From: Yuukianura sp. NJ FZ-2021
Taxonomy: Eukaryota
DNA length: 64,000 nucleotides
Direction of reading: 5' to 3'
NCBI GenBank assembly: GCA_046563655.1
Contig: CM102285.1
Span: 14,942,001-15,006,000, forward strand
Shown here: positions 8,211-40,388 of the stretch, in pieces
How positions within the stretch are numbered: the stretch's first letter is position 1
Layout: the number at the start of each line of letters is the position of its first letter
Translations under genes and position numbers: made by a program
Notes under the pieces: generated by a model
What the model saw: only the letters and a program-made list of their open reading frames with translations
Databases searched by the model: none
What the model was told of the DNA's origin: nothing

Positions 8211-8707
8211 GGAGAGTTGGTTGTTGGGATTTGGAACAAATCCACTCGGCAGAAAGGAGAGGGAACACAAAGCACGGTTTAGCAATCACTTCTTGTCTCC
8301 GGCACAACAAAGTCAAGTAAACAACGGTATCTTTGGATCTTCCGGAATTCAGCAACAGATAAGCCACACGGACTAAGAGGAGAGAGGTCAAGAGGTCACA
8401 GTCACATCCACATAAGGTATCCTCGTATCTCGACTTTATCATTCGACTATCGACTATCGCCATTCGCCAATGTTTTATGCGGATTCTTATCTTGCAGTGT
8501 CTCTCTTTCGTTCTTATCTGGATTGCTTTATTCAAGATTCCGAGACGGGAAGACTGAAGTGAAACGTAATCCACACGACGCTTAGGCTGGAGTATCGCAC
8601 TGCTGTGAATAATAAGTAATCAAAACTATTTAACACCAGGTACTGTTTCTATCTAATTACAAATTGCGAATAAGTTGTAGCGATTGATTTAAAATTTAGG
8701 TCAGAAG

Positions 8708-11192
<2,485 letters not shown>

Positions 11193-12195
11193 TCCTTTTG
11201 GGATATGGATGATTATCTTGAGTGTATCGATGATTATCTCTTAGGATATCCATGATTATCGCTGAAACCCTATGTTTCTAACTTACTATTTTGTATGGAA
11301 GCCTTAGCACTGGCTATCCTCTCCATTTTTCGAGTTTGTAACAACGTAACCTTTGACCTTGGCCTACTTTGGCCTCGTGTCACTACACCATTTTCGTACA
11401 TTTTACTTTTTCAATTTCACTTTAGTTCAAAAAAGTTCCATTTTCTCAAACGAGTAAACAAGGATTGACAAAGATAAACAAAAAACTGCCCAATGTATAT
11501 TTTAGTAGGATAATATTTTTACGTGTAAATTGTTAGGAGATAAGTACAGCAACTCACTTTTTCGGCTCAATGAAATTTTAATTCTCAAACTCACATTTGC
11601 GTTTTTATTTTAGTTTTTAAAGAGGTGCAAAAGTATTTTTTTTAATAAGCGTGTGTGTATATAAATTAGTCTAAAAACTTAATTCGAGCTAAATCAAAGA
11701 AAAAAAAATCAGCAACAAAATTTTTTTTTCAAAATTTCGAAAAAAAAAAAAAATTCAAAATTTCGAAAAAAAAAAAATTTTTTTTTTTTAGAAAAAGTAG
11801 AAATGAAAAGTAGGCAATTCTACAAACACCCACGCTCGCGCTCTAACTCGCTTAGATCTGAGATCGGAAAGTGCCGAACCATGCCCTCATCGAGACCATG
11901 AAAATCGTTCGTTACGCGACAGGATGCATTCCCACCCACCCATGCACCACCCTTCCAACTCATCTGAATTCGACAAATCAACGCAGATCTTACGATTTTA
12001 GGTTCCCGCCAATCGCAACTCACCGGAGTTGCATCAGCCACTTCCACAGCTTCTTCTGCCAGTTTCGGTCCGTCTTCATCTCCCTCCATCTTCTCCACAC
12101 AGTCAACGTCTGCTGCTCGTACCGAGAAGACCTCGCCATTCCTTTCGTCAGCATCCATCTTGCTTTTTCCCACTTGGACAACACAACAGGTAACA

Positions 12196-12420
12196 CCGAA
12201 AATGACCTCTGCGAAAGTTGTTTAGGGTTTTAAAGGGAACATTTTTTGTCTTATAAAGTATGGCACTGTGACCGTTCCCTGAGGTCACAGGTCGACCTAA
12301 AGGAAGCCGAGAAATCTTCTTTGAGCTGTGACGTCAGGGAAGGGTCACAGTGCCATACATTATAGGACAAAAAATGCTCCCTTTAAGACCCTGAACAACT
12401 TTCACAGAGGTCATTTTCGG
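12196..12420. mobile_element. Foldback/MITE-like element with 95-bp inverted arms and a 35-bp spacer
   Basis: 12196-12290 is the reverse complement of 12326-12420 with about 8 substitutions. No ORF and no clear target-site duplication. Confidence 0.6.
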
Positions 12421-12751
12421 GTTTGTCTAAGGTCAGTTTTCACAAAAGTACTTTGAAAATTTTCAATACATGGGAGAGTATGGGAGTGCGTTAAAGTTGG
12501 TCCCTTCCACCCGGTCGGCCCTACTACATTTCTCTGGACATACCGTCACTGTATCTTTTTCATTGATTAATAAATTAATCCTCATTGCAGTTCCCCTTTT
12601 TACCTCATTTACTCGTCTTCCGACGTACTTCCGGGTGACCTTTGAGTCGGCCCTTCGGGTAGTTCTCTCCGAACTTTCCCTCAGTGTCGTAACGTAATAA
12701 CCAAATTTGAGTTGTATACTATTTATAATAATTTGTGTTTAAAAAAGGAAA

Positions 12752-13402
12752 ATGGTGATCAGTCTCGACCCCAACAACTTGAGGGCCTACTTGAATCTGG
12801 TGGAGGAAAAGGCATTGCAATACACCGGAAATGGTAACGGTCCACAGTTGGAAGCTGCTGTCAAGTCTCTTGGCGAACAAATTGAGTTGTGGCTGGCCAA
12901 GGAAAAGCTTCGTCTCCACTTCATGATGTTCAACCTTGAGCAGCCTTACTATAAATCACTCAAGGGATGGTTGGATTTCCAAGAGTAAGCATATAACAAT
13001 TATCACAATTTTCAACTCGTTTCTACGGAAACAAAATACAGATGTACTACTGTTTTAGCTGGCTGGCACTCACTATCCTTTATTATACCATATTTTTCTC
13101 GTGTAACGCACAAGAGTATAGGCGAGAAATTACGGTGATTCATGTTCGTAATTGAAATGAATTAACTTTTTGTTAGAATATTCATATTCAACCGGAGGTT
13201 TGGAATGTGGCTCTTTGAGGAAGGAACTTTCGAGAACATTGGAATTGGTTCGTACGAGAACTGGCGGTTTGGTGGCTACAATGGTGGAAACTTCGAAAGG
13301 AGTGGAGAGCCGGTGAAATTGTTCCGCAAGTGGTATGGTGGTAGGCATTATGGACTTCCACGGCGCGTTACGTTTAGAAAGATTGAATCTCGATGCTCCT
13401 GA
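12752..13402 (+). CDS. 152-aa YvgO-like (bacterial stress-protein family) protein; exons 12752-12984 and 13177-13402
   Basis: GT-AG intron 12985-13176 joins the exons in frame (459 nt total): ...LHFMMFNLEQPYYKSLKGWLDFQEIFIFNRRFGMWLFEEGTFENIGIGSYENWRFGGYNGGNFERSG... This resembles the YvgO pattern N.M.FNL.Q.Y...G.W.FE.G.F.N.GDGG..NW.F.G. Confidence 0.7.
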
Positions 13403-13880
13403 TCAGCTGATCAAGGTAAAACTTGCGAAAAAGCAGCAAACGCCAATTCCAAATGAAACAATCCAAAATTCACTATGTTCTCTGTCATTTTCAGAGTCTT
13501 CCAATCTGCAGGCTCAACGTCGCAGTTCCAGATTTCAACTTTCTCCACAAACTTGTGTCGTAGCAGTTGAGCAAATTTTCGAAAAACTAAAATGTGTAGA
13601 TGAGTTGATTATATTCCTTTTTGTTAAATTGGTTGGTTAAATAAAAGTTGGGAAAATAAAAACAAGGATTTCTTATTTTTTTGTGAGTGCTCTCTTCCAG
13701 CTCTCTTGTGAGCTCTATTAAAGTCCGCGATTCCCGGTTTCAAATCAGAGTGTACAGTCAGCTGAGACGGGGTGACACGCCCACCGAGTTCGTTTCTGTA
13801 GGCTAAAGAAAAAATAACACTAAGATTTTCATGTTTTGTGTACTTGTACAGTGAGCTGCGAATGTTGTGAACCAAAAAAC

Positions 13881-13973
13881 TTTCTCCTAAATCTCTTTTC
13901 CTTTCCACCTCGATTTCGGCCCTTGGATCAAGGGTTGAAATCGAGGTGGAGAGGAAAAGGGGTTTAGGAGAAA
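13881..13973 (+). other. 45-bp hairpin with a 3-nt loop; candidate structured RNA
   Basis: 13881-13925 pairs with 13929-13973. All five non-Watson-Crick positions are G:U on the + strand. Confidence 0.6.
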
Positions 13974-14142
13974 GGTTTTTTGCTCCAAAACATTCGCAGC
14001 TCACTATATGTATGCAATGCAATGACAGGAGCGCATGAGCTGAAAATCATTGACAATTGATTTTATGAAGTTTTTGACACTTTAATGTACAGCATCGTGA
14101 ATATCGTTGTAACTCTCGAAACTTTTGAAATTAGAAACTAAT

Positions 14143-16869
14143 TCATTTGAATTGGAAGTTTGATTTCTGTTCGGCGTAGAGTTTGTTCAAGTCTTGTACA
14201 ATTCCACGCAGAAAATTAGTTTCTTCACGCAGTTTGAGCTCGTTATTTTCGGCAACGAAGCACCGGGCACTCAGTTCTTTGATGTAGTTCATTCCGATAC
14301 CATTCTGAAAACACAAATATCAAAATTCAAAAATGAAATTTTGAAAATTTTAAAATTTTGTTTTACTGGGAGTCGTTTAGCGTCTTCCTCAATTTTCTTG
14401 CGTAGAATTCGAATCACAGAATTGGAATCTGCAGTTTGAGTTTGCGCAAAAGTGGATTCCGTTGGTAACCAATCTCGGATTTCTTGGTGCAAGCGATTCA
14501 CGTACTCTTCGTAGCGTTCAATCTTTTCAAAATTTGAAAACAAACTATCAAAATCAACTTTTTAGAACAAAAAATGTCAGTTTCTGAAAATTTTTTATTT
14601 CTTCAAACCTGTGTTGCTTGCAAAGCAATGATTTCTTGAGTTGCCAATTCCTTTTTATGAGATTCAGTTGACTGCTGTTGCCATGACGACGGTGTTGGTG
14701 ACGACGTGTGCTGTTGCCATGACGACGGAGTGGGTGACGACGTGACACTTTGTGGGTACTGGACAACTGGACGTCCTGGAGGAATCTGCTGGACAACTTC
14801 CTGGATCATTGCATTCATTCTCTTCTGGATGTAAATTTCCTGCTTCTCTTCCTCCAGTTTCTCAAATTGCTGGTGGATATAAGCTGCTAAACGACTCAGA
14901 TCAACTGTCTAGAAAATAAAAACCAAAATAATTCTTCCTCAAAAACTGAAAAAACTATTCAAAATTTTGAAAATTGTTGTTTTGAAAATGTTACTTGAGG
15001 TGTTTGGAGATCCACTTGGGACATTTCTTTACTCATGCGTCCAACTTGTTCTGCGACTTCTTCTACTCGTTTCTGGAGATTCAGATTTGATGATTGGATT
15101 TCCTGTACTTGTCGACGCAGAGCCAACTGCGTCGAATCCTCTGCGCAGCCGTTGAAAAATCCACTGTCTCTGCGTTCCTTGATTTTGTCGAGTGGTTCCG
15201 TTGATGCGATGAGTGAAAAGTAGTCTTCCTCCAACTGCTTAAAAGTTTGGTGACTTTGGTAAATCAAAATGTTCTTCTCCAGTAGCTCAGTTCGAGCAAA
15301 CAAATTGGCACTGTCAGTCTTGATTTGAGATACAAGTCGCTCTGCTTCTGAAATCTAAAAACAAAAAGAAACTCAAAAATTTCGAAAAACTTTAAAAGTT
15401 TGAAATTCAAAAACTAAAGATTTAAAAATTTCTACTAAGATTTTGTCCAAAGACGTACCCCCTCTTGAGCACAAATTCGTAACTGAGCATCTCCGCTTCC
15501 TTGACCCAGTGTTTGTGTTGGCCAAGTCTTCCTGTACAAAATTTCAAGGTCACTTGGAGCAGGGTCAAGGTCAAGGTCAATGTGTCCATCTTCAGATTCA
15601 GTCTTTGAGTAATTCAGTCTCTCCTGCAAAAAAAATAAGGCCAATTTCCAAGGAATTTAAAAATTACACTTAAAATTTTATTTTCGTTTTTTAGAAATAA
15701 TTATCACAGCATTTTGTCACCCGGAAGGTGAAAAAATATCAATTAGTTGCTCAATTAAAAGTAATGACGTAAGTGAATTTCTAAAAAACAGAATTTGAAA
15801 TTCTGAATTTCTAAAAAAAATGAACACAACTCTACGATTTTCTAAACAAACTACTTTTGCCACAAAATCGTACGTGTACAACGGCATTGGATCTACGGAG
15901 AGTACTCCGTAAAGTTTAAAAATTTAAGTGAAAATTGCGTGGCTAAAAAGCTAAATTTCTAAGGAATAGGTTAAAGCTGCACCGTCAGTTTCAGTTTCAA
16001 AGGCTAAGATCAAAAGGTCACAGCGCCAACTTGCAAGGCCAAAACGAAAGGCCTCTTAAATTCTAAAAACGTTTCCTAAAATTGTAAAAACGTTTTAAAT
16101 TCTAAAATTTGAAACTTTAGACACGAAAAATCCGTCCAGCGACAGAAGAGTGAGTGGAAGATGGAAGTGGTTGGGCGTTTCCGCGTTTTAGAGCGACGAG
16201 AGCGTCTTGGAGATGGGCTATCGTTACCTTTTGCATTGTAATCTCAGCATCCTTAGATGACATCTCCTTCAGCGCTGCATTTTTAGACGCTTTCAGCGAT
16301 TCCAGCTCCAGTTCCAGCTCACGGATTCTGGACTCCTTCTGCGCAGTCTCACTTTCACTCTGGGCCAACTGACTCTTGAGATCCAGCATGGACGAAAGTA
16401 GAGAGTGCTTGGCAGTACTGTCCATGTTGTTGTTTCGGTTCATCTCGGCAGTAGTACTTCCAGTATTCTTACTTCTCACTTTCAGCATTCCAGTACTTCC
16501 AGTATTCTTTAAAAAAAAGTTACACAAATTAGAAACTCGTTTTTCACAAAATTCAAAATTCGGCTTACATGAAGGACCAAAAAATTGAAAACGAAAAGCA
16601 GCAGCAAAGAAGTCGAAAACAAAACGAAAGCAAAACCATGACAACAGCTAAATAAAAAGCTCACGCATGTGCAAAAAGTGAAAGATTTTTCTAAAAAAGC
16701 AACTTTTTCAAAATATTTTTCAAAAAGCACTTTTTTCTAGAACAAACATTTTTTTTAAAAGTGCAAAGAATGTCACTACCGTCATCAACTGAGTCTGCTG
16801 ATTAGTCAGTCTTCCAGCACCTTCTTGACTAGAAACCCAGCGCCCAATCCCAATTTCCATTTGACTAAG
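14143..16869 (-). CDS. Coiled-coil exon set (module B); alternative C-terminus of the upstream coiled-coil gene, or a separate gene
   Basis: Seven phase-0 GT-AG exons read in frame: LSQMEIG...QLMT | NTGST...SRIRELELELESLK...MQK | ERLNY...QEG | ISEAERL...TPQ | TVDLSRL...ATQ | IERYEEY...RLP | NGIGMNY...FQFK* (stop 14143-14145). Confidence 0.65.
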
Positions 16870-17021
16870 CTAAAATAGAGCAAAGTAATTATAATGACTA
16901 ATTACTTGTAATTAGGTAATTAAGTAATTACGAATTACTTGTAATTGCAAAGAATTCAAAAGCAATAGTATTTACAATTACAGTTTGTATTGGATTTAGA
17001 AATAGGGAATAGGTAAAAGGT

Positions 17022-20000
17022 TTAATATAAACTTTTTCGGTTCGTTTGTCGTTTCCTTTGAGTTGATGTCGTCGTTTTCGTAATGTTTCGGTTCGTATCG
17101 GAAATCGGTTCGGTTCGTTTCGTTTGTGCGACGATTTCACTATGGTGGTGTCGACTGCTAGTAGGCTTGGATTCCTTGCCAAGATTTTTCTTGGTGTCTT
17201 TAATCCAATTCTGGATGACAGACTCATGACTTTGTTCTGGAAGAGATGCAAGTACTTCGTCAATATTCTGAGTCCATCCAGAAATGGAGTCTCCTGGAGC
17301 AGCACTTCCTGGAGGAACGATACGGTTTTTCTTCTTTTCCTGGACAACGACAGGGTGAGACCCCTTGGCTGCAACCATCGATCCAAAAGTTTCGGTAAAA
17401 CTTCCGGAATCTCTGATACTCTTCGGTACTTGAGTCGGTTCGTCACCAGCTCCACTGCTAGATTGGCCTTTACCGTGATTCGGTGCCGGATGTCGGTTCG
17501 TTTCCTGATGTCGGTTGTGATAGTGTCGAGCCGCTCGAACTCGAATTGTACGGGCTTCTGGAAACTCCGACATCAAAGTTCTGGAAGAATCAAGTGCCGC
17601 TCCCAGAAGATCTTCCAACTCCTCATATTCGGAACGATTCGGCTTTGACGACTCGGTACGACCGGACTGTGGTGCATCTTGTCCGGCTCCACCTCGCTCA
17701 ACGATTTTCGGGAACCGGTACTCTTCCGGTATTGAAGCTTTTCGGCCGGACGCAACAGAAGGAGTTGACGTACCGTCAAGTTGCGGTGGAAGTTCCGGTA
17801 ATTTGAAACTTCCGTCGTGTCGGCTCGGTTTCTTGGACAACTTTCCTGAAGATTGGTCACTTGATTGGCCAAGAACAAGTCCGAAACGATCCGAAAAGTA
17901 TTTGACAATCTTCGTAGTCCGAGCACTCGAATTTTCAATTGGTGGCAACTTTTCGGTTCCGGATTTCTGTGGTTCCTAATTTTGGAAAAATGAAAATTTG
18001 GAACTTGAATTTTCTTGAACTAACTTTTTCACAAAAATATATCATCAATGTAACTTTTTAAAAATATTTTTACCTTGACGTTGGGCTTTGGTGGCTTTTG
18101 ACTTTTCTTAGAAACTGAGTCCCCCGGCGGTGGCTTCGTGACGATTTTCTTGGGTGGGTGGGGCGTTGGCGGTCGTGGCGGTGGGACTCCTGGTCGCGGT
18201 GAATTCGTGGAAGACGCGGCGCGAATTTTGGCTGCAAGTGGAATGGCTGTGGGTGGAGGTTTCTTGCTGTAAAAGTGGGCGTTCCACGAAGGTTTGTGTG
18301 CTAATGCTTCAGAAGTTGGTCTGTGCTTGTCACGAGGCGAAGCATTTGTGCTGCTGATCGCTTCTGGCTCAACTTTCTCTTTGGAATGGCGTATGCGTGA
18401 CGCTGATTTGGCAGCATTTTGAAGCAGAGACGAAGAAATGTGATGATGGTGCTCTATCTTGTCAACCTTGGGTCAAGAAGAGGAAGGAAAGGGAGGGAAC
18501 TTTTGAAATGGACAGGTGAAAAATGGTTGCCATGGTTACATGTCCACGGTTGCCATGGTTACACTTACCCGGTCGTAGAGAATGTCCAGTTGTTCCTGGA
18601 GGTTTTTGACCATTTCAGAACTGCTGCCGAAAAGAGTTTCAGCTTCTTTACACTTTTCTTCAAAAATCTTCACTTCTTCATGGATGGAGGCCAGTTTATC
18701 TTGATTCTCCAGCAGAGATCGAACTTTGTCTTTGGTCACTTGCGAATCCTGGGAATAGGAATTACATGAATTACATTGAATTACTTAGTAATTACAAGTA
18801 ATTACAGGTAATTACTCACCACGTAGAGACTTTTGAGAACACCTTTGATTTGGGTGACATCGACAAGCCGTTGGTTCATTTCGGTTTTGAGTGCAGAAGC
18901 TTCGGATTTGGCTGATTCCCGCTCAGTTCGTGCCACATGAAGCTCGTCTTTGAGTTCCCTCATGTCCCACACAAGGTCACTCAGCTCTCGGTCTCTCCCA
19001 TTTTTCTGTAAGTAAACCAAAAAGAAAAAAAATTCAAAATTTTGAAATTTTTGAAAACTCTTTTTTGTTTTTTTGAGAAAAGTTGTTACAGCGCTGACGA
19101 GGAAGCTCTTTGTAAACAGGTCATGTGACTCCTCCAGCCGTTTATGGTAGTCGTGATTCTCGGCTTCAAGAGAAGCAATTTTGGAGTGAAGTTCAGTTCT
19201 CTCTTTTTGTAGATCCAAAATCAACCTGAAAAAAAAGAAGTTGAAAATGAAGATTTTCAAAATTTGAAATATAAAATTTTGTCTTCTTTACTCACTTTTC
19301 TTTTTCCGAATTTGATTTGTCTGCTTCGGACTTTCCTTTTTCCAAATTCGTAAATTTCTGCTCCAGTTCCTGCAACTTTGCTTCAGTTTCCTAGAAAAGT
19401 GGCAAAAATTTAAGATGTTGGAAGATGATGGTTGATATAAAGTTGAAAGTCCTAAAAGTACTATAAGTAAAAGTACTAAACGTAAAAGTACTACTGATAT
19501 AAGTATAAAAGTACTTGGAAGTATTAGTACTTACTCGAACTTGGCGAGCACGGTCTTGAGTAAAGACTGTTTGGACTTCGCTTCCAGGCAGTCCCGGGTA
19601 GAGATCAAATAGATGCTTGTACGTTTTAGTGTTGAGGTTGAGTCCACTGATGTCCCACACTCCCCAGTCACGAATTCTCGTGATCAGTTTGATGAGACTG
19701 GCATGCTCCTCTTCAACTGCTTCCAGCTTCTGTTCCAGTGCATTCTTCTTCTTCAGCAGATCGTCTGCCTCCACATAAAACAGCTAAAAAAGAGAAACAA
19801 CGTAAAGTAAAACTTAATCGATTAATCAATTAATTTATATAAATTGTTGGTAAAAATTGTTTACTTGAAGGTGTCGCTCCGTTTCGTCTCTGTGACTGAC
19901 GAAACTTTGTACTTGCTTCTCATACTCCTGGATCACTGTCATGTGCTCCATCAGCATCTGCGCTGATCGCTGAACTTTTCCTTGTAGCAACTGGATCTTC

Positions 20001-20713
20001 TCCTCTGCCTCTTTTTCCATTTCGTCAATAGTGTCTATCAGCACGCGGTTCTGCTCGTTCAGGTCACGAACCCAGTCGGACATGATGGCATTCTTGACCT
20101 GAGAGAGAAATTGAGAGAAGTCAGAGGAATGCTGTTCTGAAAGGCTGGCAACGGTTAAGTATTTAGTACTTTGACCTACCTCCAGACACGAGTTGTCACT
20201 GTCATGGTCATTAGCTTCAGCACTTGCACTGGACTCTGCTTCTAGTAACTTTTGTTCATATAAAGTATTGAAGTTGTCCAGAAGATCTTGGAGGTACGGT
20301 GTGTTCTTGTTCTCCTTCGGTGTACTTGAAATCACGGGATCCGGAATCGTTTGAGTTACGTTTTTAGTAAAAGAAGAATCGTCGTCTGATCGAGGTTCCT
20401 GAGTGGCAGTTCCACGTCGAGATAAGCCAGGAGACCCAATTGATAAGACTGGTGACATGACTGGAGTGACGAATCTAGATCCACTGACAGACGACTCGCC
20501 GACGTCAGTGTCGTGGTACCCATTGAAGAACTGTCCAGCAGCTCCAGTTTCTGAATAGTTTCCAGAATCATACACTTCTTTGTCACGGTCATGGTCCGGT
20601 GGAGTTAGTAGTTGCTTGGTATGCTGCTCGTCAACATTTTGTGTTAGGTGGTGGTCGTCACCGTGTATTGATGTGACAGGGTCCACTTGGTCCATGATAC
20701 TACATTGGTTCAT
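17022..20713 (-). CDS. Uncharacterised coiled-coil protein with a Pro/Ser-rich basic tail (module A)
   Basis: Long ORFs 19835-20746, 19391-19774, 18802-19260, 18536-18739 and 17022-17948 linked by GT-AG introns. Heptad-rich segments such as DWVRDLNEQNRVLIDTIDEMEKEAEEKIQLLQ. The ATG at 20713 is inferred. Confidence 0.7.
18526..18562 (-). promoter_or_regulatory. Two tandem RFX X-box motifs (GTAACCATGGCAAC) in an intron
   Basis: Identical 14-mers at 18526-18539 and 18549-18562 fit GTNRCC-N(0-3)-RGYAAC on the minus strand. Confidence 0.5.
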
Positions 20714-20807
20714 GTGACTCCTGAAAAAAATCAAGGTCCATTTCAAAAAATCCGAATCTTGAGAATCATCTGATTATTCCAAAACAAAAACACGGAGTGA
20801 CTTTGTG

Positions 20808-20969: not shown

Positions 20970-23900
20970 ATGGCAAAGATTAGTTTGACCTTGACCATGT
21001 TTATGTTCCTTATCTGTTTAAATCAAAACTGTAAAAGTGAAAATACATTTTCGTATGTCAAACCTACCAGTTGTCTTGTGAGTAACAACGACACGTTCTC
21101 CGGGGTCAAACTGGGTTGTGTCAAATGTCACTGGGATGTCATCAACGGTTCTTCCTTGACCTCCTCAAGTACGTTACTCTTTCAATTACTAATTAAACGA
21201 AATCGTAACGTTGGAGTTTAGCTTAGACAGAATTTTTCTACGAAGGGAATTAGTCGTGTAAATTACATTTAATTTTTAAAAAACAGCTGTTCGCAATTTG
21301 GACAAAAAATGTTGCGCCAGTATGACGTCACGCACTATTACGCAATGACGTCACATTGTAAAAACATGTAACGCGTGTCTAGTCCATGTTATGAGCACGA
21401 ACTTAAGTTTTACACAAAATGAATTATTTTTATAGCATAATCAATTAGTTTGACATAATAGTTATGAATTTTAAATATTAAATATCAATTTTTTTTTACA
21501 CTTCGAATGATTTATTCAAATCAAACTTTTGAAAATGGGATTGGATTTACTTAAGATAAATAAATTCGATTACTAGAATAAAGAAAATTAAATAAATTAA
21601 ATATCAATTTGTACAACTATTCTGTTGTTCCAGAAACTGGAAAGTGCTCTGCATGTCCCACTGGATACTGGAAGAGTGGAGATACTTGTAAATACTGTTC
21701 AAATGGAACCGTCACGGAAGGTCAAAGGTCATGTCTTCAGTGCTCTGCTTCTTATCCGTTCAACCAAACTACTCAAGCTTGTGACCCTTGTCCTCAAGGT
21801 CACATTCACCGTAAGTCAAAAAAGTCAAAATTGAAGCGGCAACCTCAAAAAAAAATTAATTAAAGTCAGTTCTAGTAGTTCCAGCCGTAGCTGAACATAA
21901 ATTTAGTAGGAAAATCACTCTTTTTAAATAACATAATTCCAAATTCCAAAACGTTAAAAATTTAGTAGGAAAATCACTCTTTTTAAATAATATAATTCCA
22001 AATTCCAAAAAGTTAAAAGTTTAGTAGGAAAATCACTCTTTCTAAATAGCATAATTCCAAATTCCAAAAAGTTAAAAGTTTAGTAGGAAAATCACTCTTT
22101 CTAAATAAAATTTAGTAGGAAAATCACTCTTTCTAAATAGCATAATTCCAAATTCCAAAAAGTTAAAAGTTTAGTAGGAAAATCACTCTTTCTAAATAGC
22201 ATAATTCCAAATTCCAAAAAGTTAAAAGTTTAGTAGGAAAATCACTCTTTCTAAATAGCATAATTCCAAATTCCAAAAAGTTAAAAGTTTAGTAGGAAAA
22301 TCACTGTTTCTAAATAGCATAATTCCAAATTCCAAAAAGTTAAAAGTTTAGTAGGAAAATCACTCTTTCTAAATAGCATAATTCCAAATTCCAAAAAGTT
22401 AAAAGTTTAGTAGGAAAATCACTCTTTCTAAATAACATAATTCCAAATTTCAAAACGTTAAAAGTTTAGTAGGAAAATCACTCTTTCTAAATAACATAAT
22501 TCCAAATTTCAAAACGTTAAAAGTTTAGTAGGAAAATCACTCTTTCTAAATAACATAATTCCAAATTCCAAAAAGTTAAAAGTTTAGTAGGAAAATCACT
22601 CTTTCTAAATAACATAATTCCAAATTCCAAAAAGTTAAAAGTTTAGTAGGAAAATCACTCTTTCTAAATAGCATAATTCCAAATTCCAAAAAGTTAAAAG
22701 TTTAGTAGGAAAATCACTCTTTCTAAATAGCATAATTCCAAATTCCAAAAAGTTAAAAGTTTAGTAGGAAAATCACTCTTTCTAAATAACATAATTCCAA
22801 ATTCCAAAACGTTAAAAATTTAGTAGGAAAATCACTCTTTTTAAATAACATAATTCCAAATTCCAAAACGTTAAAAATTTACTGAGATCTCTGAAACTGA
22901 AACTAAGCTGAAACGAAGGCTGAGAACTGAAAAGGCGTTTTGAAAATTCTTATTGCTAGTTTTTTAATTTTTAGTCGTCCGAAAACCGAACGGTGGATCA
23001 GAAGATGTTCTGGAATGTGTGAAATGTGTTGACGGAATGACCCCGTCGAGGTCATCTGAAACTTGTGAACCATGTCACCCCTCATTTCCAAAGGAATTGA
23101 GTGTCAACGGAAACTGTACTTGTGCAGACACTGTCATCAACGGAATCTGTCTCCCTCCAAATCCTCTTCCCGTGACCTTTGACCCCAAAAATATGTACAA
23201 AATTCGATACGACAATGTTGACCCAGTAGAGTCAAAATTCTTAACCGACAATGTCATTCCTGCATACCATCTTTGTAAGGTCAGTCTTTAAAAAAAAGTC
23301 AAAAAATTCTATTTTAGACTTTACTAAAATTAAAATTAGGTAAAAATTTACTAATTTTAATGAAATTCCAATTTCAGAAAGAGAAAAACGAAACAGCGTG
23401 TCAAATTTTAGCCAACTCTTGCACCCTGCAGTTGTATTTTTCTGGAGAGGACAATTCCTGTAAACTGCTGGAATTCCTGGACAAGAACGAAGGGAGTTCG
23501 GGAGTTCGTTCGGTTCTTCCGAAAGTGATTTACGAAGATCATTACCCGATTCTGCAAATGCCGGAATTCATTCCACAGGAATTCACGGCCAACTTGGACG
23601 AATTCTCTTCGGATTTTAACATTTCCGTGGCACGGTATCTCTTTACTGGAGAATTCCTTGGACTGACTGCACTCCCTGACCTTTTGCCATGTCAAGGTCA
23701 CTTGACCTCCAAAAGAATCAAACAGAAGTTTGGAGTGACCTCACGCAGTCGGTGTAGCATTAAAGTCAATGACTTTATGGAATTCCTGCCATCACAAATG
23801 GAATTCTGGGACGTTTTTCTAAGTTTGGAAAACGAACAGAAACGAACTCTGTACTCCCTCCCAGTCAAAATTATGAATCTCAAGAAAAACTCTGTCAAAA

Positions 23901-26900
23901 TCAACGAGGTAAGATTCAATTTCTGAAATATTTGAACAATTTGAATTTCAAAATTCACTTTCAAAATGTCTGAAATTTTGATGCAGGCTGATGATAAGTT
24001 CCAGTGGCTGCTTGTTCGGAGATTTTTCTTGGCCGATACAATTGGTGGAACGGAGGAGGTCAGCGGGTCAAGTTCAAAGTCAACCAAATCAGCATCAAAA
24101 GTTATTCGCTACATTGAAAAAATTCACGTCGCGTAAGTCCTTTGGCCGTTTTTCACGTCGCGTGAAAAATTTCGTAATTTTGAAGAAAATAAGCCTGCTT
24201 TCTCACATATTAGATCGGAAAAAAAGTTTATGCACCTTTTCGAAAGAAAAAGCGTTTTTTTTATTTTTATATAATAAGGAGTTATTATATAAAATACGTA
24301 TATTTATAAAATTCAAAAAAAATTATAGAGAAAACTATAGAGTGATTCTGATTCCGCGAGTCTGATTGGTTCAAAAACTTTACATTGCGCGAGATAGGGA
24401 ATGAGATTAGGAAAAATACATTGCGGAAAACTTTTGACCTGTGTTTTTTTATACAAGAAAACCAGGGTACTAAATTTTTTAGTTTTATCCGGCGTTCGAC
24501 TTTTTTAACAAAGATTATTTCCTTTTAAAACTTTTTTTTTAATTTTCTTTATCTTTTTGAATATTGGCAGCATCCAGTTGCAGCAACAAGAAAATGCTGG
24601 CCGAATATTCGTTCCAATTGTTACTGTTCAGTACAATCAATTCACTGATGAAAACATTGCAGCCAACAGTCAAATTCAGTTCAGTTATGAAGTGGAGTAC
24701 TTTATGGACATGAGCAGAGCCATGGAGGATATCAAGGTCAGCATTAAACGTTTAACGTTTTTAAAACGTTTTTCATAAAACGTTGTTTGACCAAAAGTTG
24801 ACGTTTTTTGACAAAAGTTAACGTTTTTTGAACCAAGGTTGACGTTTTTTGGATTTTGTTTAGATTTCAGTTGGAGTCATCAGTTCCTTAGCTGTTCTTT
24901 TAGCAGCCATTCAAACATGGACGTGGAACAGACGAAACGGCCGAGCCGAAATCGATCTAGAAACGATTTTGACGCTTTTTCTAACGTCGTGCGGAAACAT
25001 CGCTGATGCGTTCGTTCTGGTTTCTTTCTGTACTGGTCTCTACTGGTGGATTTTCTTCAAGAAGCAAGTGGCAGTACATGTACTGCTGCCGCAACCGAAC
25101 CAGGAACGACTCATCCGAGACTTGCTCATTTCAGCCTTTGCACTCAAGGTATTTTACGAAACAAACAGAATTTGGATTTAGAAGTTTCCGTTTTACTGAA
25201 ATTTTGAATTCAGAATTTCCAGTTTTCTGAAATTTTGCAATTTTTGTGCTAGATTGTCGACGTTCTGAAGATGATTGGACGCCAAGTGACTGTTGACATA
25301 TTTTTCATCGACTGGGAAAAACCGAAAGCCGGAACGACCGTCCAGCATCCGTCGAGTGAAGACAAGTCGACTTCCCGAACACTTCCGGAAACTCCCGACG
25401 ACAAACAAAGTGTCAGCATTTGGCGGTCGTATTTTGTCGCCAACGAGTGGAACGAAATTCAATCTCTCCGGAAAATCAACTTCCCGCTGCAAATTATACT
25501 CGTCCTGCTTTTCTTAGAGGTGAGGAAGCGATTTCAGAAAATTTCAGAAATCTGAAACTTTTCGAATTTTGAAAACTTTGTTTCGAAATTGTAGGTGTTT
25601 GGTTTGAAGTACTGGGGATTACATTGGCCAAACATGACCGTGAATCCAGGCACCGTGGACAGCGACATTCCGAACAGCACCGTGGCACGGTTCACGACTT
25701 CAACAATCGTTTTCCTGTTGCTGGGTTTGATCCAGTGGCTCTGCAACGTCGGAATCTACGAACGATTTGTCTGCAACAAAATCCAAGACTTTGTTGACAT
25801 TTGCACTCTGGCTAATGTCAGTGTCTTCATTTTATCGGCTAAGCAGTATGGATACTACATCCATGGAAGGTAAATCCAGGTCTCTGATTGGTTGTTGGAA
25901 TGGGCCAATCAGCTACTTTGGTTTCTGCACAGGTCTGTCCATGGTTTTGCTGACACGGACATGCGCACAATGGTTGAGCAGTTGAACAGAGAAGAAGAGG
26001 ATTTGTGTGGACGTCGCGGATTGGTTCCGACGTACGATCAGCAAACGTTTATCATCTCCATTCCCAAGGCACTGCGTTTAGTATACGATCAGGTGCTTCA
26101 ACCACTATATGTGGTGAGTACTTCTGATTGGCTGAAATTTCTCTTTTTCTGATTGGTTGCAATTTCTCTGTTTCTTATTGGTTGAAATTCTGGTTCTAAT
26201 GGGTTGAAATTTCCCGGCCTATGATTGGTTACAATTTCTCTGCTTATTATTGGTTGTAATTTCTTTTTTTTTGATTGGCTGAAATCTCCCTGTTTCTGAT
26301 TGGTTCAAATTTTTCTGATTTCTGATTGGTTGAAATTTCTCTGTTTCTTTATTGGTTTAAATTTTGAGTATTTTACCGCAGAGTTCCAAGGGACTGACTT
26401 ACGCAGCATCAAGTGCCACTGGAGGTTCAAAAGGTTCAGCGACAACTGTCGCCGCAACAAAATCGGGCAGTGCGTCGTCGCAGTTGAACGAGAGTGCACA
26501 TGCGTACCACTCCATGAACAGATTCCTGACGTCGTTCTTAGAACATTCGCTGAGTGACATTGACTACGAGGTCAGCGACAAGTCATTCATTGAAACCACT
26601 TTGGACATGGAGTTCCAGGACAACGGAGACACAGCTATTTTCTACAACGGTGAACAGTTTACCTGGAATCTATTTCAAAACATAACTAAAACTTTGAGTC
26701 CAATTTTAAAATTTTTGTTAGACGATGGTAACGCATTTGCTTCAACTTTGTTCTACGGTAACGAACACACTTTGTTCCTCTTTGACCTCTATGTCTTCAA
26801 CTTCGTTGACCTCTTGACCCACAACTTTGTTCTCGCCGGAATTGTCACTTTCTTGTTTGACATTGTAAGTCACTCACTCAAAAGTCAACTTTTTATAATA

Positions 26901-27209
26901 ATTTTACTACAACATTTTCTTTTATAGTTAGGATTTTGAGTTGAACTTGAATTTTGCATCTTGTACATTATATTTTGCATTTAGTCCATTTTGAATTTAG
27001 TACATTTCGTATTAGTACGTTTTAAATTTCGTACATTTTGAACTTAGCACCTTTTGTATTTGGTGCATTTTGTTTTTCTAATTCTAAGTTTGTTTTAAAT
27101 TCTCACTGTATGTTTTTTTATGTTTTAGATGCTGAAGTGCCTAAGAAAATCGTTGGGGAAGAGGAACTTGGCCAGGAAGACTCTGATTGACAGGCGATTT
27201 CTCATCTAA
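20970..27209 (+). CDS. TMEM67: Meckelin (ciliary transition-zone protein), multi-exon
   Basis: Signal peptide and Cys-rich ectodomain; ACQILANSCTLQ, LVRRFFLAD, VDIFFIDWEKPK, VSIWRSYFVANEWNEIQ, FVDICTLANVSVFIL, YGYYIHGRSVHGFADTDM; C-terminus LGKRNLARKTLIDRRFLI*. Confidence 0.96.
21901..22881. repeat. Intronic minisatellite, 59-bp unit, about 17 copies (one truncated)
   Basis: Unit TTTAGTAGGAAAATCACTCTTTCTAAATAGCATAATTCCAAATTCCAAAAAGTTAAAAG, head-to-tail with no spacers, in a meckelin intron. Confidence 0.97.
26120..26360. repeat. Degenerate intronic repeat built on (C)TGATTGGTTGAAATTTCTCT
   Basis: About ten imperfect ATTGG-containing units in a meckelin intron. Confidence 0.7.
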
Positions 27210-36108: not shown

Positions 36109-39100
36109 ATGAAGTTGTGTGGATCATTTGGTTGGAAACGACTCAACAATGTCCTGCAAGCTCCAATTCCATTTGGCCAACGACATTTGTACCGAAGTTC
36201 TACTTCACTTCAACTTGATCCCTCTTCGCCAACAAAGTCAAAGAAAGTTGGCAGTCCAAAAAAGAAGTACTCGGATACTGTCATTCTCCCCAAAAGCGAT
36301 TTTCCTTTAAAAATTTCACAAGAGAATCGAAAAGAACACGAATTAGCTTTGGCAGTGGTAAACTAGTGCAGATATAAAATTGGTTAACTAGCAGTATAAA
36401 AATGATTTACTTAATTTTATTTTCCATTTAGAGGTTAAAGTTTGACAAACTCTATGCATCTCAACTGCAATGGAGAAGAGATCAACCTGAGTATATTCTG
36501 CACGATGGTCCTCCTTATGCCAACGGCGAGGCACACATTGGACATGCTGTGAATAAAGTAAGCCAATCTTATCGAAATCTGATTTTAAACAAGAAATTAC
36601 CGATTTTGTTTGATTTCAACAGATTTTAAAGGATATTACCAATCGGTACAAGTTGTTGAGAGGCTACAGAATCAATTATCGTCCAGGATGGGACTGTCAT
36701 GGGCTTCCAATTGAACTCAAGTCTACCAAAGAAAAGTTAGCAATCGGAGTGAACCCGAACGATGTTCGTGGAGCATGTAAGCCAAGAATCTTCAAAGAAA
36801 ACAGGAACTTTATCGATTTTTGCAATGTCTTAACAACTTTTTGTGAATTTTTAGCTCGCGACGTTGCAAATGAAGCTATACTGAAGCAGAAACAAGCTTT
36901 TCAAAGGTGGGCTGTCATAGGCGATTGGGAAAATCCTTACAAAACGTTTGACAAGGACTACGTCAAAGCCCAGTTACAACTGTTTCACTTGTTGTATGAC
37001 AAAGTAAGTCAATTAATCTAAGATTATTTAATTAATTAGTAACAACAATAATTGAGTTAATTTATGTTTTCAGGGCCTGCTGTACCGAGATCTGAAACCA
37101 GTCTACTGGTCACCTTCCAGTCAGTACGTAAACTCCACAAGCATAAGCAACTAATTAGCTAATTCTTGCTTTTCAATTAATCATAATCTTAACATTTTTT
37201 AGCACTGCTCTGGCCGAAGCAGAGTTGGAGTACGTATCAAATCACGAGAGTACTTCCATCCTCCTCAATCTCGATCTCAATCTCAATCTTCAACAATTTA
37301 TGTCCCAAATTGGTTCAGTTGTTCCCGCCCAGTTTGATAATGTACTGGACAAGAAAGTTTATGCAGTCATTTGGACCACGACACCATGGACACTTCCGTC
37401 TAATACTGCCGTGGCTTACTGTGCCGATGAAAAATATTCTGTCCTGTACAATGGGCGGATCCCAGCAGACAGAAGAGACTTCTACATCGTGGCTACGAAA
37501 CTCATACCTCAGTTTGAATCTTTACTTGAGAAGAACATGGAGATCTTGACTGAGTTCTCTGGCGACCATTTGAAGAATCTGACCTACCGACATCCGTGGT
37601 TTGAAGATCGTCGTCAGCCTTTTCTGGATTCAAGTCATGTGACCATGGACAAAGGCACGGGGTTGGTCCACATTGCTCCGGCACACGGTCCAGACGATTT
37701 TCTTCTTGCTCTGAAACATAACTTACCGATAGTGAGTGAAACAAAATGTAAAATACCGTATTTATCGGGGTATAACGCGTATTCGCATATAATGCGTAGT
37801 GAAATATCATTTCCAATCTCAAAGTTTCGATTTTATACAAGATGGAAGATTTTGAAATTATGATTTTGTTTTGTGTGTTTTTGATTTTTAGGAGTGCTTT
37901 GTTGATGATGAAGGGAAGTTTGACTCGAGACTTGGAGCCCTTAAGGGTCTTCCTGCTCTGACGATGGGAAATACACAAGTTTTGAAGAAGTTAGAAGAAT
38001 CGGTTCTCTACAAAGATACTAAATTTGTTCACTCTTATCCCTACGATTGGCGTACCAAGAAGCCTGTTCTCGTCAAAGCCAGCATGCAGTGGTTTCTCAA
38101 TACTCAAAAACTAAAGGAAAAAGCTGTAGTGAGTTAATCGATTAATTTAATTTATGGATTTATGCATGAAGTTTAACACTTTTTTGGGAACTTGCAGGAA
38201 CTGCTGTCAAGTGTCAACATTTTTCCTAAAAATATCCAGAACGGAATGGCAGCCCAAGTTATGAGCAGGCCTTACTGGTGTATTTCGAGACAAAGGTTGT
38301 GGGGTGTACCGATTCCTGTTTTGTACAACAAGGAAACTGGAGAACCTGTTGTTAACAAGTAAGTTTTAAATTTTTAGAATACTAGAATTCAAAAATCTTA
38401 TTTTTAAAATTTTTAAAATTTTAAAATTTTAAAACAGGAAAATAATCGACAAGATGTGTGAAGTTTGTGATCGAAATGGAAATCTGGATAGCTGGTGGAC
38501 GCTTCCTCCGTCTGCATTTTCGGATAATAAGGAAGCTGATACACTGTACGAAAAAGGAAAGGTGAAGAAATACTTGGACCAAACTAATTAGTACTCTAAT
38601 TAATCAAGATTTTTCAATGTTTTCATACTAAAAACTAAAATCTGAAACTAACTTTTGTGTTTTTCTTTTCAGGATATTTTTGATATTTGGTTTGACAGTG
38701 GAATTTCTTGGCATTTGTTGGATGGAAAGACGGCTGACTTATGCGTGGAAGGACTTGATCAATTCACTGGTTGGTTCCAGTCCTCTCTTCTGCTCTCTTT
38801 GGCTGTCAGAGGAACTGCACCTTACAAGTAAGCTATGAAATTTTTGAAAATTTTAAGAAAATTTTCGAAAAGTTTGTTTTTAAGTTTTTTTGAAAGTTGC
38901 ATGAAATTTTATTTCTTACAGAAATCTGTTGGTTCATGGGTTTGTTGTGGATGAAGACAACAAGAAAATGTCAAAATCTCTTGGGAATGTTGTCCATCCC
39001 ACTTCGGTTACGGATGGAGACAAGGCACTTACTAACGGAAAAGCTTTTGGAGTGGACGTACTGAGGTAAAATTCAAAATACTAGAAATCCAATCCAAACT

Positions 39101-40388
39101 TTAAAAAAGGAAACGAAAAGTTAATCTTGAAAATGGTTTTTTTTTCAGATGGTGGGTAGCGTCGCAAGGTTCCCAGGGATCCAGCATGGCTTTGAGTACG
39201 ACTGCACTTCGCTCGGCTGAAGAAAATATCCAGAAGTTGCGACATGTTTTGAAGTTTCTTGTGAGTTTTACTAACGAAAAGGCCAATGAGGACATGGATG
39301 TTGACGAAGTGACTTACGATGAGTTGGAGTACATGGACCAGTACATGCTCCTCCTACTCAACAAGTTCCAGAAGGAAGTGACTGAACAGTATGAAGGATT
39401 TGCTTATCATAGAGTCATGATGAAAGTGGTCCATTTTGTGACTGTTCATGTTTCGGCACATTATTTGACATGGGTCAAAGATAGGTGAGACAAATACAAA
39501 TAAAGCGAAACTTTTCAAAATTTTCTAAATTTTTTGTTTGAAATTTTAGACTTTACTGTGACCGAAAGGACAGTCAGAGCCGGAAGTCAGCCATGTACGT
39601 TCTCAACCAAATTTATTTAACTTTGATCAAAACGCTTGGTCCAGTTTTGCCATTTTTAACGGAGGAGAGCTACTCGTACTACTCGGCGGGTAAGACAAAA
39701 AATTCACTAAATTGAAGTGAAGAAAGGTCAGTTTCGGTTTTAAAAAAAAAATTATGTTTCTGTGTTTTTAGTTGAAGAGTCATTGTTCAAGTACACTTGG
39801 TTCAACGTGGGAGAGGAGCAGTGGGACAATGGACATGTGAATGACTTGTTTGCTCTGGCGCTGGACATTAGAACGAGTCTCAACCATGTTATTGGTGAAA
39901 ACGATCAAAAACAAGTGTGGGTTGAAATTATTTGTAATCAAAGCAACTTCAAAATGCTGCAGGTAATTTTTGAAAAAAGTTGAAATTGCAGAAATATGAG
40001 GCATAGAGTTGAAAATTATAAGTTTTTTGAAATATTTGTCTAGGTTCTGCACCCTGATGAATGTAATTCTGAACTTTGTGATATTTTACAAGTATCTGGA
40101 GTGACGCTTCATTGCAGCGATCAAGCCGATTTTAGTATCAATCCTTACGGAGTTTCTCATAGTCTGAATGGATTTTCCGTTGGAGTTTCGAAGACAGAGA
40201 AGATGCAGTGTGCTCGTTGTCGTCGCTTCTGTTGTACAGAGGGGGATGTACTTTGTTCCCGTTGTGCAGCGATTCTGAAAGTGACTACCATAGGAACTCC
40301 AATTGAACAGCAGCAAAGAGCAGTGGAAGTTCCAGAAATTGTGGAAGATGCTCAACAACCTCCAGCAGAAATCAGGAGCAGAACTTAA
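36109..40388 (+). CDS. IARS2: Mitochondrial isoleucyl-tRNA synthetase, multi-exon
   Basis: Transit-peptide-like N-terminus; [71 protein letters not shown] near 38965; C-terminal CARCRR...CSRC. Confidence 0.95.

Follow-up and report, generated by a model that had tools for sequence, protein, structure and literature searches.

Transfers of microbial genes into animals are well documented. For the YvgO-like proteins, which carry the domain DUF7888, we know of no solved structure and no known mechanism, and antifungal activity is to our knowledge the only activity of the family that has been tested. In excerpts of the relevant papers, the YvgO of Bacillus thuringiensis SF361 is described as an antifungal protein (PMC8703302), and yvgO of Bacillus subtilis stands in a list of the SigB stress regulon (PMC7824861). 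The YvgO proteins of Bacillus and Priestia are secreted and ~157–170 residues long. The same domain occurs in tandem repeats of Streptomyces chartreusis, in a Rubrobacteraceae S1 peptidase and in a Myxococcaceae GH18 chitinase, which are multi-domain, secreted and in some cases fused to enzymes. Genes of foreign origin have been described in the fungus gnat Bradysia coprophila, for which the excerpted report counts 28 ‘alien’ P450 genes, assigned to springtails, mites and fungi, and assigns five terpene synthases to mites (PMC12051294). Here, we describe a YvgO-like gene on the plus strand of a 64,000-nucleotide stretch of Yuukianura sp. NJ FZ-2021 (assembly GCA_046563655.1, contig CM102285.1, positions 14,942,001 to 15,006,000; the window, in which all coordinates below are counted). 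It is very likely a real, transcribed two-exon animal nuclear gene that codes for one YvgO-like domain and was acquired by horizontal transfer from microbes. An orthologue in B. coprophila is already named YvgO-like in RefSeq, and the window gene is another member.

Compared with YvgO of Bacillus and Priestia, the window protein holds the same domain over ~75–110 residues with 40% identity in the core, and shares ‘FNL(S/E)Q.Y’ and ‘W.FE.GTF.N.G.G...NW.F.G’; two helices and a beta-meander are predicted in the same order. Unlike these proteins, it has no signal peptide, has Ile instead of the Asp of G-D-G-G, carries a four-residue insert and a C-terminal extension of ~25 residues, and is encoded by a spliced nuclear gene. 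Whereas the bacterial repeat proteins are multi-domain, the window gene has a single domain. Its likeness to the Bradysia protein (XP_037040248.1) is closer and includes G-I-G-S, the insert, the C-terminal extension, the missing signal peptide, the position of the exon junction and the clade, although the Bradysia protein has ~31 more N-terminal residues, predicted to be disordered, and falls into another subclade.

Exon 1 (12752..12984) starts with an ATG at 12752 and holds codons 1–77 and two bases of codon 78. It is followed by a phase-2 spliceosomal intron of 192 nucleotides with GT..AG ends and 33.3% G+C (12985..13176), in which the donor GTAAGC begins at 12985 and a pyrimidine-rich acceptor, ...TTTTTGTTAG, ending in TAG, closes at 13176. 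Exon 2 (13177..13402) ends in a TGA stop at 13400–13402. An earlier note on this stretch, made without database searches, had joined two short open reading frames (ORFs) into one intact protein of 152 amino acids, and this structure was reproduced: the frames, open from stop to stop over 12743–12988 (81 amino acids) and 13166–13402 (78 amino acids), join across the GT..AG intron, and scripted joining by coordinates (233 + 226 = 459 nucleotides) yields 152 codons with a single terminal stop. The exon translations of 77 and 74 residues contain the motifs quoted in that note, MMFNLEQPY in exon 1 and GIGSYENW (G-I-G-S-Y-E-N-W) in exon 2, the latter next to W-L-F-E-E-G-T-F-E-N. Exon 1 codes for the helical N-terminal half and the first strand and aligns with the helix and ‘YNVMVFN’ region of microbial YvgO-like units; exon 2 codes for the beta-rich core, the four-residue insert and the C-terminal extension.

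To examine splicing, contigs from four sequencing runs were compared over positions 8600–15000. Runs X1, X2 and X3 come from one sample (organism A) and X4 from a related organism B; the contigs carry no information on transcript ends, strand or level. We read X3 as transcript-derived because its contigs skip 10/10 introns of the neighbouring polo gene, with GT..AG ends, and, in the neighbour on the minus strand, introns bounded by CT..AC. Neither X1 nor X2 has any of these intron joints among the 15 joints listed. Two contigs, both from X3, join the exons of the YvgO-like gene, and the frame is kept in each. The first (depth 123.6) joins 12981 to 13177 with GGA between, which is the 12984|13177 junction proposed in the earlier note, carrying a single synonymous change at 12982. 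The second (depth 96) joins 12985 to 13180 with GA between; it has equal length and differs at three bases, so that it would come from a diverged gene copy that keeps the frame. An unspliced X3 contig spans 12955–13235 at depth 4. The intron is thus real and, with X3 taken as transcript-derived, the gene appears to be expressed. An in-frame stop lies 9 nucleotides 5' of the ATG, and an upstream coding exon is still possible; X3 contig cover is near zero across 12452–12665.

A second, diverged copy of the gene (12845–13180) was seen in the DNA contigs of X1 and in the exon-joining contigs of X3. It is marked by compensating one-base gaps at 12884–12907, by a loose end ahead of 12845 and by three base differences at the junction. 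A tblastn search with the spliced product did not find a second copy in the window.

The likeness to YvgO, proposed in the earlier note, was evaluated by searching exon 2 (74 amino acids) exhaustively with HMMER against 1,835,955,588 representative proteins. At E ≤ 1e-3 there were 13 matches, consisting of four close relatives, five bacterial repeat proteins and four spurious hits. The close relatives (P0003–P0006) are short unnamed proteins that are 59–65% identical to exon 2 (E 1.3e-16 to 2.2e-13). The bacterial matches (E 5.7e-11 to 6.1e-4, 45–52% local identity) are P0007 and P0012 of S. chartreusis, the unnamed P0008, the Rubrobacteraceae S1 peptidase P0009 and the Myxococcaceae chitinase P0013. 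They bear one to three units of ~110 residues each, 12 in total across the five proteins, of the form “YNVMVFN ... VWVF.EGTF.N.GDGGY.NWAF”. P0010, P0011, P0014 and P0015 are long repeat proteins that lack the motif and were judged spurious by eye.

An alignment (A1) was assembled from the close-relative pieces plus a single unit of each bacterial protein, and a profile search with it, which depends on shared five-residue words where the wide search used exon 2 alone, gave 23 matches among 1192 candidates. These include XP_037040248.1 (P0025), ‘stress response protein YvgO-like [Bradysia coprophila]’, a protein of 184 amino acids encoded on a 23 Mb contig (E 3.6e-27), and many Bacillaceae “stress protein” entries of 156–157 amino acids (E 1e-19 to 1e-23) with precomputed PF25411.3 matches. 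The cluster of P0038 has members named “stress response protein YvgO” and “Putative stress response protein yvgO” from Priestia megaterium. In pairwise comparison, the spliced product is 52% identical to the Bradysia protein over 147 residues (151 bits), 40% identical over 73 residues to P0060, the YvgO of P. megaterium (38.5 bits in phmmer, pairwise blastp E 3.6e-13), and 33% identical to an S. chartreusis protein over 124 residues.

To avoid circularity, a further profile was built from 27 microbial rows only. The spliced product reaches 50.3 bits against it, compared with 8.8 bits for the best of 20,000 shuffles; exon 2 alone reaches 32.5 bits, and exon 1 alone is not among the best eight rows. 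The alignment runs unbroken over residues 54–125, across the junction at residue 78. Together with the relatives named YvgO in Priestia and Bradysia, these scores indicate that the YvgO likeness is real. Several other searches were empty: Pfam and NCBIfam gave 0 families for each exon singly, NCBIfam gave nothing covering the domain in seven relatives, word-index protein searches with exon 2 gave no match, exon 2 had just two chance matches among PDB sequences (E 0.75 and 0.99), and the ESM Atlas gave no usable match to exon 2 or P0025.

The protein itself departs from its bacterial relatives in a consistent way. In an alignment of 23 rows (A2; 17 microbial and six animal-type), the core loop has the same F, G, N and W in every row. 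The loop reads G-D-G-G in 17/17 microbial rows, as the earlier note had assumed in setting GIGSYENW against a usual GDGGxxNW, and G-I/V-G in 6/6 animal-type rows. Window exon 2 has the animal-type loop in A1, with G-I-G-S in place of G-D-G-G, and keeps all of the core motif W-x-F-x-x-G-x-F-x-N-x-G-D-G-G-x-x-N-W but D-G-G. Some bacterial repeat units vary at that loop too (G-D-L-G, G-D-G-S). Most animal-type rows have the four-residue insert, which follows F-G-G, and the C-terminal extension is ~25 residues long among them. No animal-type row has a signal peptide like that of the Bacillaceae proteins. The window N-terminus is hydrophilic, with a maximal 15-residue Kyte–Doolittle mean of 0.6 over the first 40 windows, in line with the absence of a signal peptide that the earlier note had described.

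Models were made with AlphaFold2 from the family alignment, with the Bradysia protein standing in for the window product. The predicted layout is two helices followed by a beta-meander that bears the W-x-F-x-x-G-x-F-x-N-x-G-x-G-x-x-x-N-W loop. In the Bradysia model two helices, five strands and a low-confidence tail are predicted, with a predicted local distance difference test score (pLDDT, as means of 10-residue blocks) of ~76–89 for residues 41–130 and ~70 by residue 150. The P. megaterium YvgO model (pLDDT 78–97 for residues 41–157, same block means) has the same order of elements, which agrees with the relationship to YvgO proposed from the sequence. Foldseek searches of the PDB with both models gave no match at E ≤ 0.001. 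The weak top match of both was Tctex-1 (5wi4; E 0.06 and 0.009), and in a wide VIA search the Bradysia model had a best Z of 6.9 (root-mean-square deviation 3.0, 89 residues aligned), rated as a common arrangement. The Tctex-1/DYNLT dynein light chains resemble the models in fold only, through their two helices and beta-sheet. Their scores lie within the range of common arrangements at 7–14% identity, and we claim no homology.

Among animals the family is narrowly distributed. The Bradysia protein is the sole named animal relative in the A1 search, and the other close relatives are unnamed. Exon 2 had 152 pattern matches but 0 relatives in metagenome contigs of the Joint Genome Institute (JGI), and P0025 had six pattern matches but 0 relatives in viral contigs. 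In a bacterial genome collection, relatives of Priestia YvgO were found at no fewer than 17 loci, 16 of them from Bacillaceae among the matches listed. Plasmid records with relatives number 54 (Bacillus 28, Priestia 22, Streptomyces 2, Nostoc 1 and Brevibacillus 1). In Bacillaceae the family is thus common and frequently carried on plasmids.

The remaining bacterial locus, L017:1863-2217, comes from a record titled Vibrio hannami and is broken: its first ~95 residues equal those of a Bacillus sonorensis ORF (L011), after which the frame is interrupted by stops. This stretch could be a decayed copy or belong to a contaminant contig.

A maximum-likelihood tree was built from 31 rows and 154 columns, without the four spurious matches, near-duplicates among the Bacillaceae rows and the incomplete sequences P0003, P0006 and P0041. 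In it, the four animal-type rows group as a single clade (support 100/100) made up of two pairs, the window protein with P0004 (94/82) and P0025 with P0005. The intron position is common to the window gene, P0025 (spliced) and P0005, which has ~29 extra in-frame residues exactly at the exon junction, as an unspliced intron read through in frame would give; P0004 spans the junction without an insert. The shared position suggests that the intron was already present before the two animal subclades separated. The narrow animal distribution and the single animal-type clade would fit horizontal transfer, and a transfer from a microbe to an animal followed by gain of an intron is well supported, with the direction of transfer the more conjectural part. 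The earlier note's proposal of a domesticated foreign gene that gained a GT..AG intron agrees with these results.

Several points weigh against this interpretation. No run is recorded as RNA, and the kind of X3 had been guessed as ‘DNA?’; in the first exon-joining contig the shorter side of the joint is just 27 letters long. None of the listed contigs or pieces spans the whole of 8600–15000, and linkage of the gene to polo by long reads was not seen in them. The local Pfam model PF25411.1 (DUF7888) has a cut-off of 27 bits; neither exon nor P0025 gives a family with it, and the bacterial and other members tested reach 10.7–22 bits (best 22, on P0043). The lack of a signal peptide and of the G-D-G-G Asp means that the window protein may not work like bacterial YvgO, and, with no clear fold match among solved structures, its mechanism rests on context only. 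Given the exon-2 query and the word-index search, distant animal homologues could have been missed. The stem of the animal clade measures 2.6 changes per column and joins the microbial rows in an open polytomy. The Pfam result carries less weight than it might, because PF25411.1 stays below its cut-off on every member tried and finds 0/2 Bacillaceae genomes that do hold yvgO-like ORFs, and is thus too narrow as a test.

The search design and the long stem bear on a further explanation, namely that this is an old animal gene of vertical descent that was lost nearly everywhere and resembles bacterial proteins through deep common ancestry. Much divergence along the stem and searches with half of the protein or a word index would be in its favour. 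However, just four close clusters were found among 1.84 billion representatives in the same search that caught bacterial proteins of 45–52% identity, one named animal protein was found, and the core motif is 40% identical to Bacillaceae; we regard vertical descent as highly improbable.

Regarding the donor, the phylogenetic check proposed in the earlier note gave a divided answer: the animal-type rows are monophyletic, but they meet the microbial rows at the polytomy instead of nesting within a donor group. A single acquisition would fit the tree, and the polytomy leaves it ambiguous whether the donor was bacterial or fungal, and from which phylum. A fungal donor seems to us a minor possibility. 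P0043, for which a fungal origin is an unverified guess, has the best local DUF7888 score and a secretion-type N-terminus, the earlier note mentioned fungal members, and a fungus-feeding host would meet fungal DNA. On the other hand, the spliced protein reaches 38–41 bits with Bacillaceae proteins, compared with 14 bits for P0043, and Bacillus proteins are the nearest non-animal rows by path length, in a tree where a single row represents fungi.

Under the transfer from bacteria that we prefer, the ancestors would most likely have been secreted proteins of soil bacteria, and the gene would have been taken up in the ancestor of a small group of animals, B. coprophila among them. After the transfer, the gene would have lost its signal peptide, gained the phase-2 intron and taken on the base composition of the host, while G-D-G-G presumably changed to G-I/V-G-x and the short insert and C-terminal extension were acquired. 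The protein might then function as a non-enzymatic binding module that is now intracellular or exported by an unconventional route. A lead on such a function comes from the bacterial proteins P0013 and P0009, in which YvgO-like units stand in tandem (three and two copies) with a GH18 chitinase or a trypsin-type peptidase domain. These fusions suggest that the domain may be a binding or targeting module for an extracellular, perhaps fungal, target, and they are a first lead on the mechanism of YvgO/DUF7888. The role of the animal proteins may have shifted, since both the loop Asp and the signal peptide are missing from them. One may ask what a bacterial domain that was once secreted, now with its most conserved loop altered, does inside an animal cell. 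Taken together, the antifungal YvgO of B. thuringiensis, the SigB-listed yvgO and the chitinase and peptidase fusions point, tentatively and with considerable doubt, to a possible role of the animal protein in dealing with fungi or stress. An antifungal family with a fungus gnat as its one named animal carrier offers an ecological link that can be tested.

The ‘alien’ P450 and terpene synthase genes of B. coprophila resemble the YvgO-like gene in being genes of foreign origin within host chromosomes of a fungus gnat. They differ in their donors, which the excerpted report gives as springtails, mites and a fungus (PMC12051294), whereas the relatives of the YvgO-like family are bacterial. In the main text of that report, as far as it was available, ‘stress response protein’ occurs 0 times and YvgO is not mentioned (PMC12051294). 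A literature search covering titles and the starts of abstracts gave no paper on YvgO/DUF7888 in animals, although the supplements of transfer catalogues may list the Bradysia gene, and a preprint on germline-restricted chromosomes does not mention a YvgO-like gene.

The same precedents (PMC12051294, in excerpt) make it conceivable that the window's or the Bradysia lineage received an already intron-bearing gene from another soil arthropod. Such a secondary transfer would suit the modest 52% identity of the window and Bradysia proteins, an intron older than the split of the subclades, and the repeat-flanked pocket described below, which is absent from another form in the sample. However, a conflict with the species tree cannot be demonstrated, and the two subclades (window and P0004; P0025 and P0005) can equally be old paralogues or the outcome of ordinary divergence, so that we consider secondary transfer unlikely.

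Polo and the minus-strand neighbour point towards each other, and the gene lies between their 3' ends in a pocket of ~2.4 kb (11669..14055). As the earlier note had described, this pocket is rich in repeats. A foldback repeat resembling a miniature inverted-repeat transposable element (12196..12420) has arms of 98 nucleotides that are 91% complementary, and a second foldback (13847..14008) has nested arms of 57 and 37 nucleotides that are 86% complementary. Contig depth is very high at these repeats, with 2820 in X1 and 466 in X4 in the bin of the first foldback, and high values in X1 and X2 at the second. The two foldbacks, one on either side of the gene, belong to a high-copy repeat family common to organism A and the related organism B. 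A relatively G+C-rich stretch of the pocket at 11820–12233 has open frames of 133 amino acids on the minus strand and 123 on the plus strand; Pfam gave no match to it, and X3 contigs hardly cover it.

The sample also contains a form of the locus that lacks the 2.4 kb pocket: in X1, one contig runs from 11616 straight on to 14056, and in X3 record 19, seven letters separate 11668 from 14056. This record differs from the window at only two letters over 11205–11668 (left flank 99.6% identical), which identifies it as the same locus, and the pocket looks like a presence/absence variant. In X1, contigs unique to the pocket have depths of 44–70, compared with ~200–276 for polo contigs and 120 for the pocket-less joint, contig depth being a weak measure. 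Neither target-site duplications nor exact borders of the pocket were found. The pocket-less form and the second, diverged transcribed copy suggest a recent duplication, insertion or deletion. It is a speculative and rather unlikely extension of this that the gene rides a repeat-flanked, still segregating cassette of ~2.4 kb, carried by the assembled haplotype but not by the other form, with at least one further diverged transcribed copy elsewhere in the genome. If so, a bacterial antifungal-type gene would be actively duplicating or moving within, and perhaps between, soil arthropod genomes, as has been claimed for the ‘alien’ P450 and terpene synthase genes of fungus gnats. Presence and absence at the locus would also allow natural carriers to be compared with non-carriers.

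The missing pocket and its low X1 depth, weak as that measure is, together with the absent signal peptide and the lost Asp, could also be read as signs of a transcribed copy that is no longer useful, either decaying or inserted neutrally. However, the frame is intact, exon 2 keeps the nearly invariant family residues, G-I/V-G is found in all six animal-type A2 proteins and in window exon 2 (A1), the intron is spliced, and the second diverged copy keeps the frame at its junction. A copy that is no longer useful is thus decidedly unlikely.

Upstream, the cell-cycle gene polo, which encodes a kinase (8708..11192, plus strand), has 11 exons and 10 introns of 58–127 nucleotides; its joined exons form a 606-codon frame with one stop, with a Pkinase and two POLO_box matches. 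The downstream converging host gene (14164..20773, minus strand) is coiled-coil-like and of no clear family, and is supported by ORFs and by CT..AC joints in X3. Meckelin follows on the plus strand from ~20862, with matches at 22968–26927. The composition of the YvgO-like gene is similar to that of its surroundings, with 46.8% G+C in the coding sequence against 45.8% in polo exons, and 33.3% in the intron against 29.6% in polo introns. Contigs of X1 and X2 match the gene region at 98–100%. The relatives of the gene are bacterial and it sits among repeats where assemblies can break, as bacterial contamination or an assembly chimera would have it. Against this stand the spliceosomal GT..AG intron, the exon-joining contigs, the agreement of X1 and X2, polo and Meckelin on either side and the host-like G+C. 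Since animal genes flank the gene and its composition is that of the host, contamination is very unlikely, to the point of being negligible, as the earlier note had argued from the position of the gene beside polo.

Beyond the locus, Rfam gave 0 matches over the whole window. Pfam searches with 44 window ORFs found general eukaryote or animal families only, none of them arthropod-specific. Further host genes were seen in the stretches 36614–39488 and 49447–64000. They include a class I aminoacyl-tRNA synthetase on the plus strand and a CAD-type gene with carbamoyl-phosphate synthase, MGS and aspartate carbamoyltransferase domains on the minus strand, and an ORF with a Mab-21 domain was found at 58235–59089.

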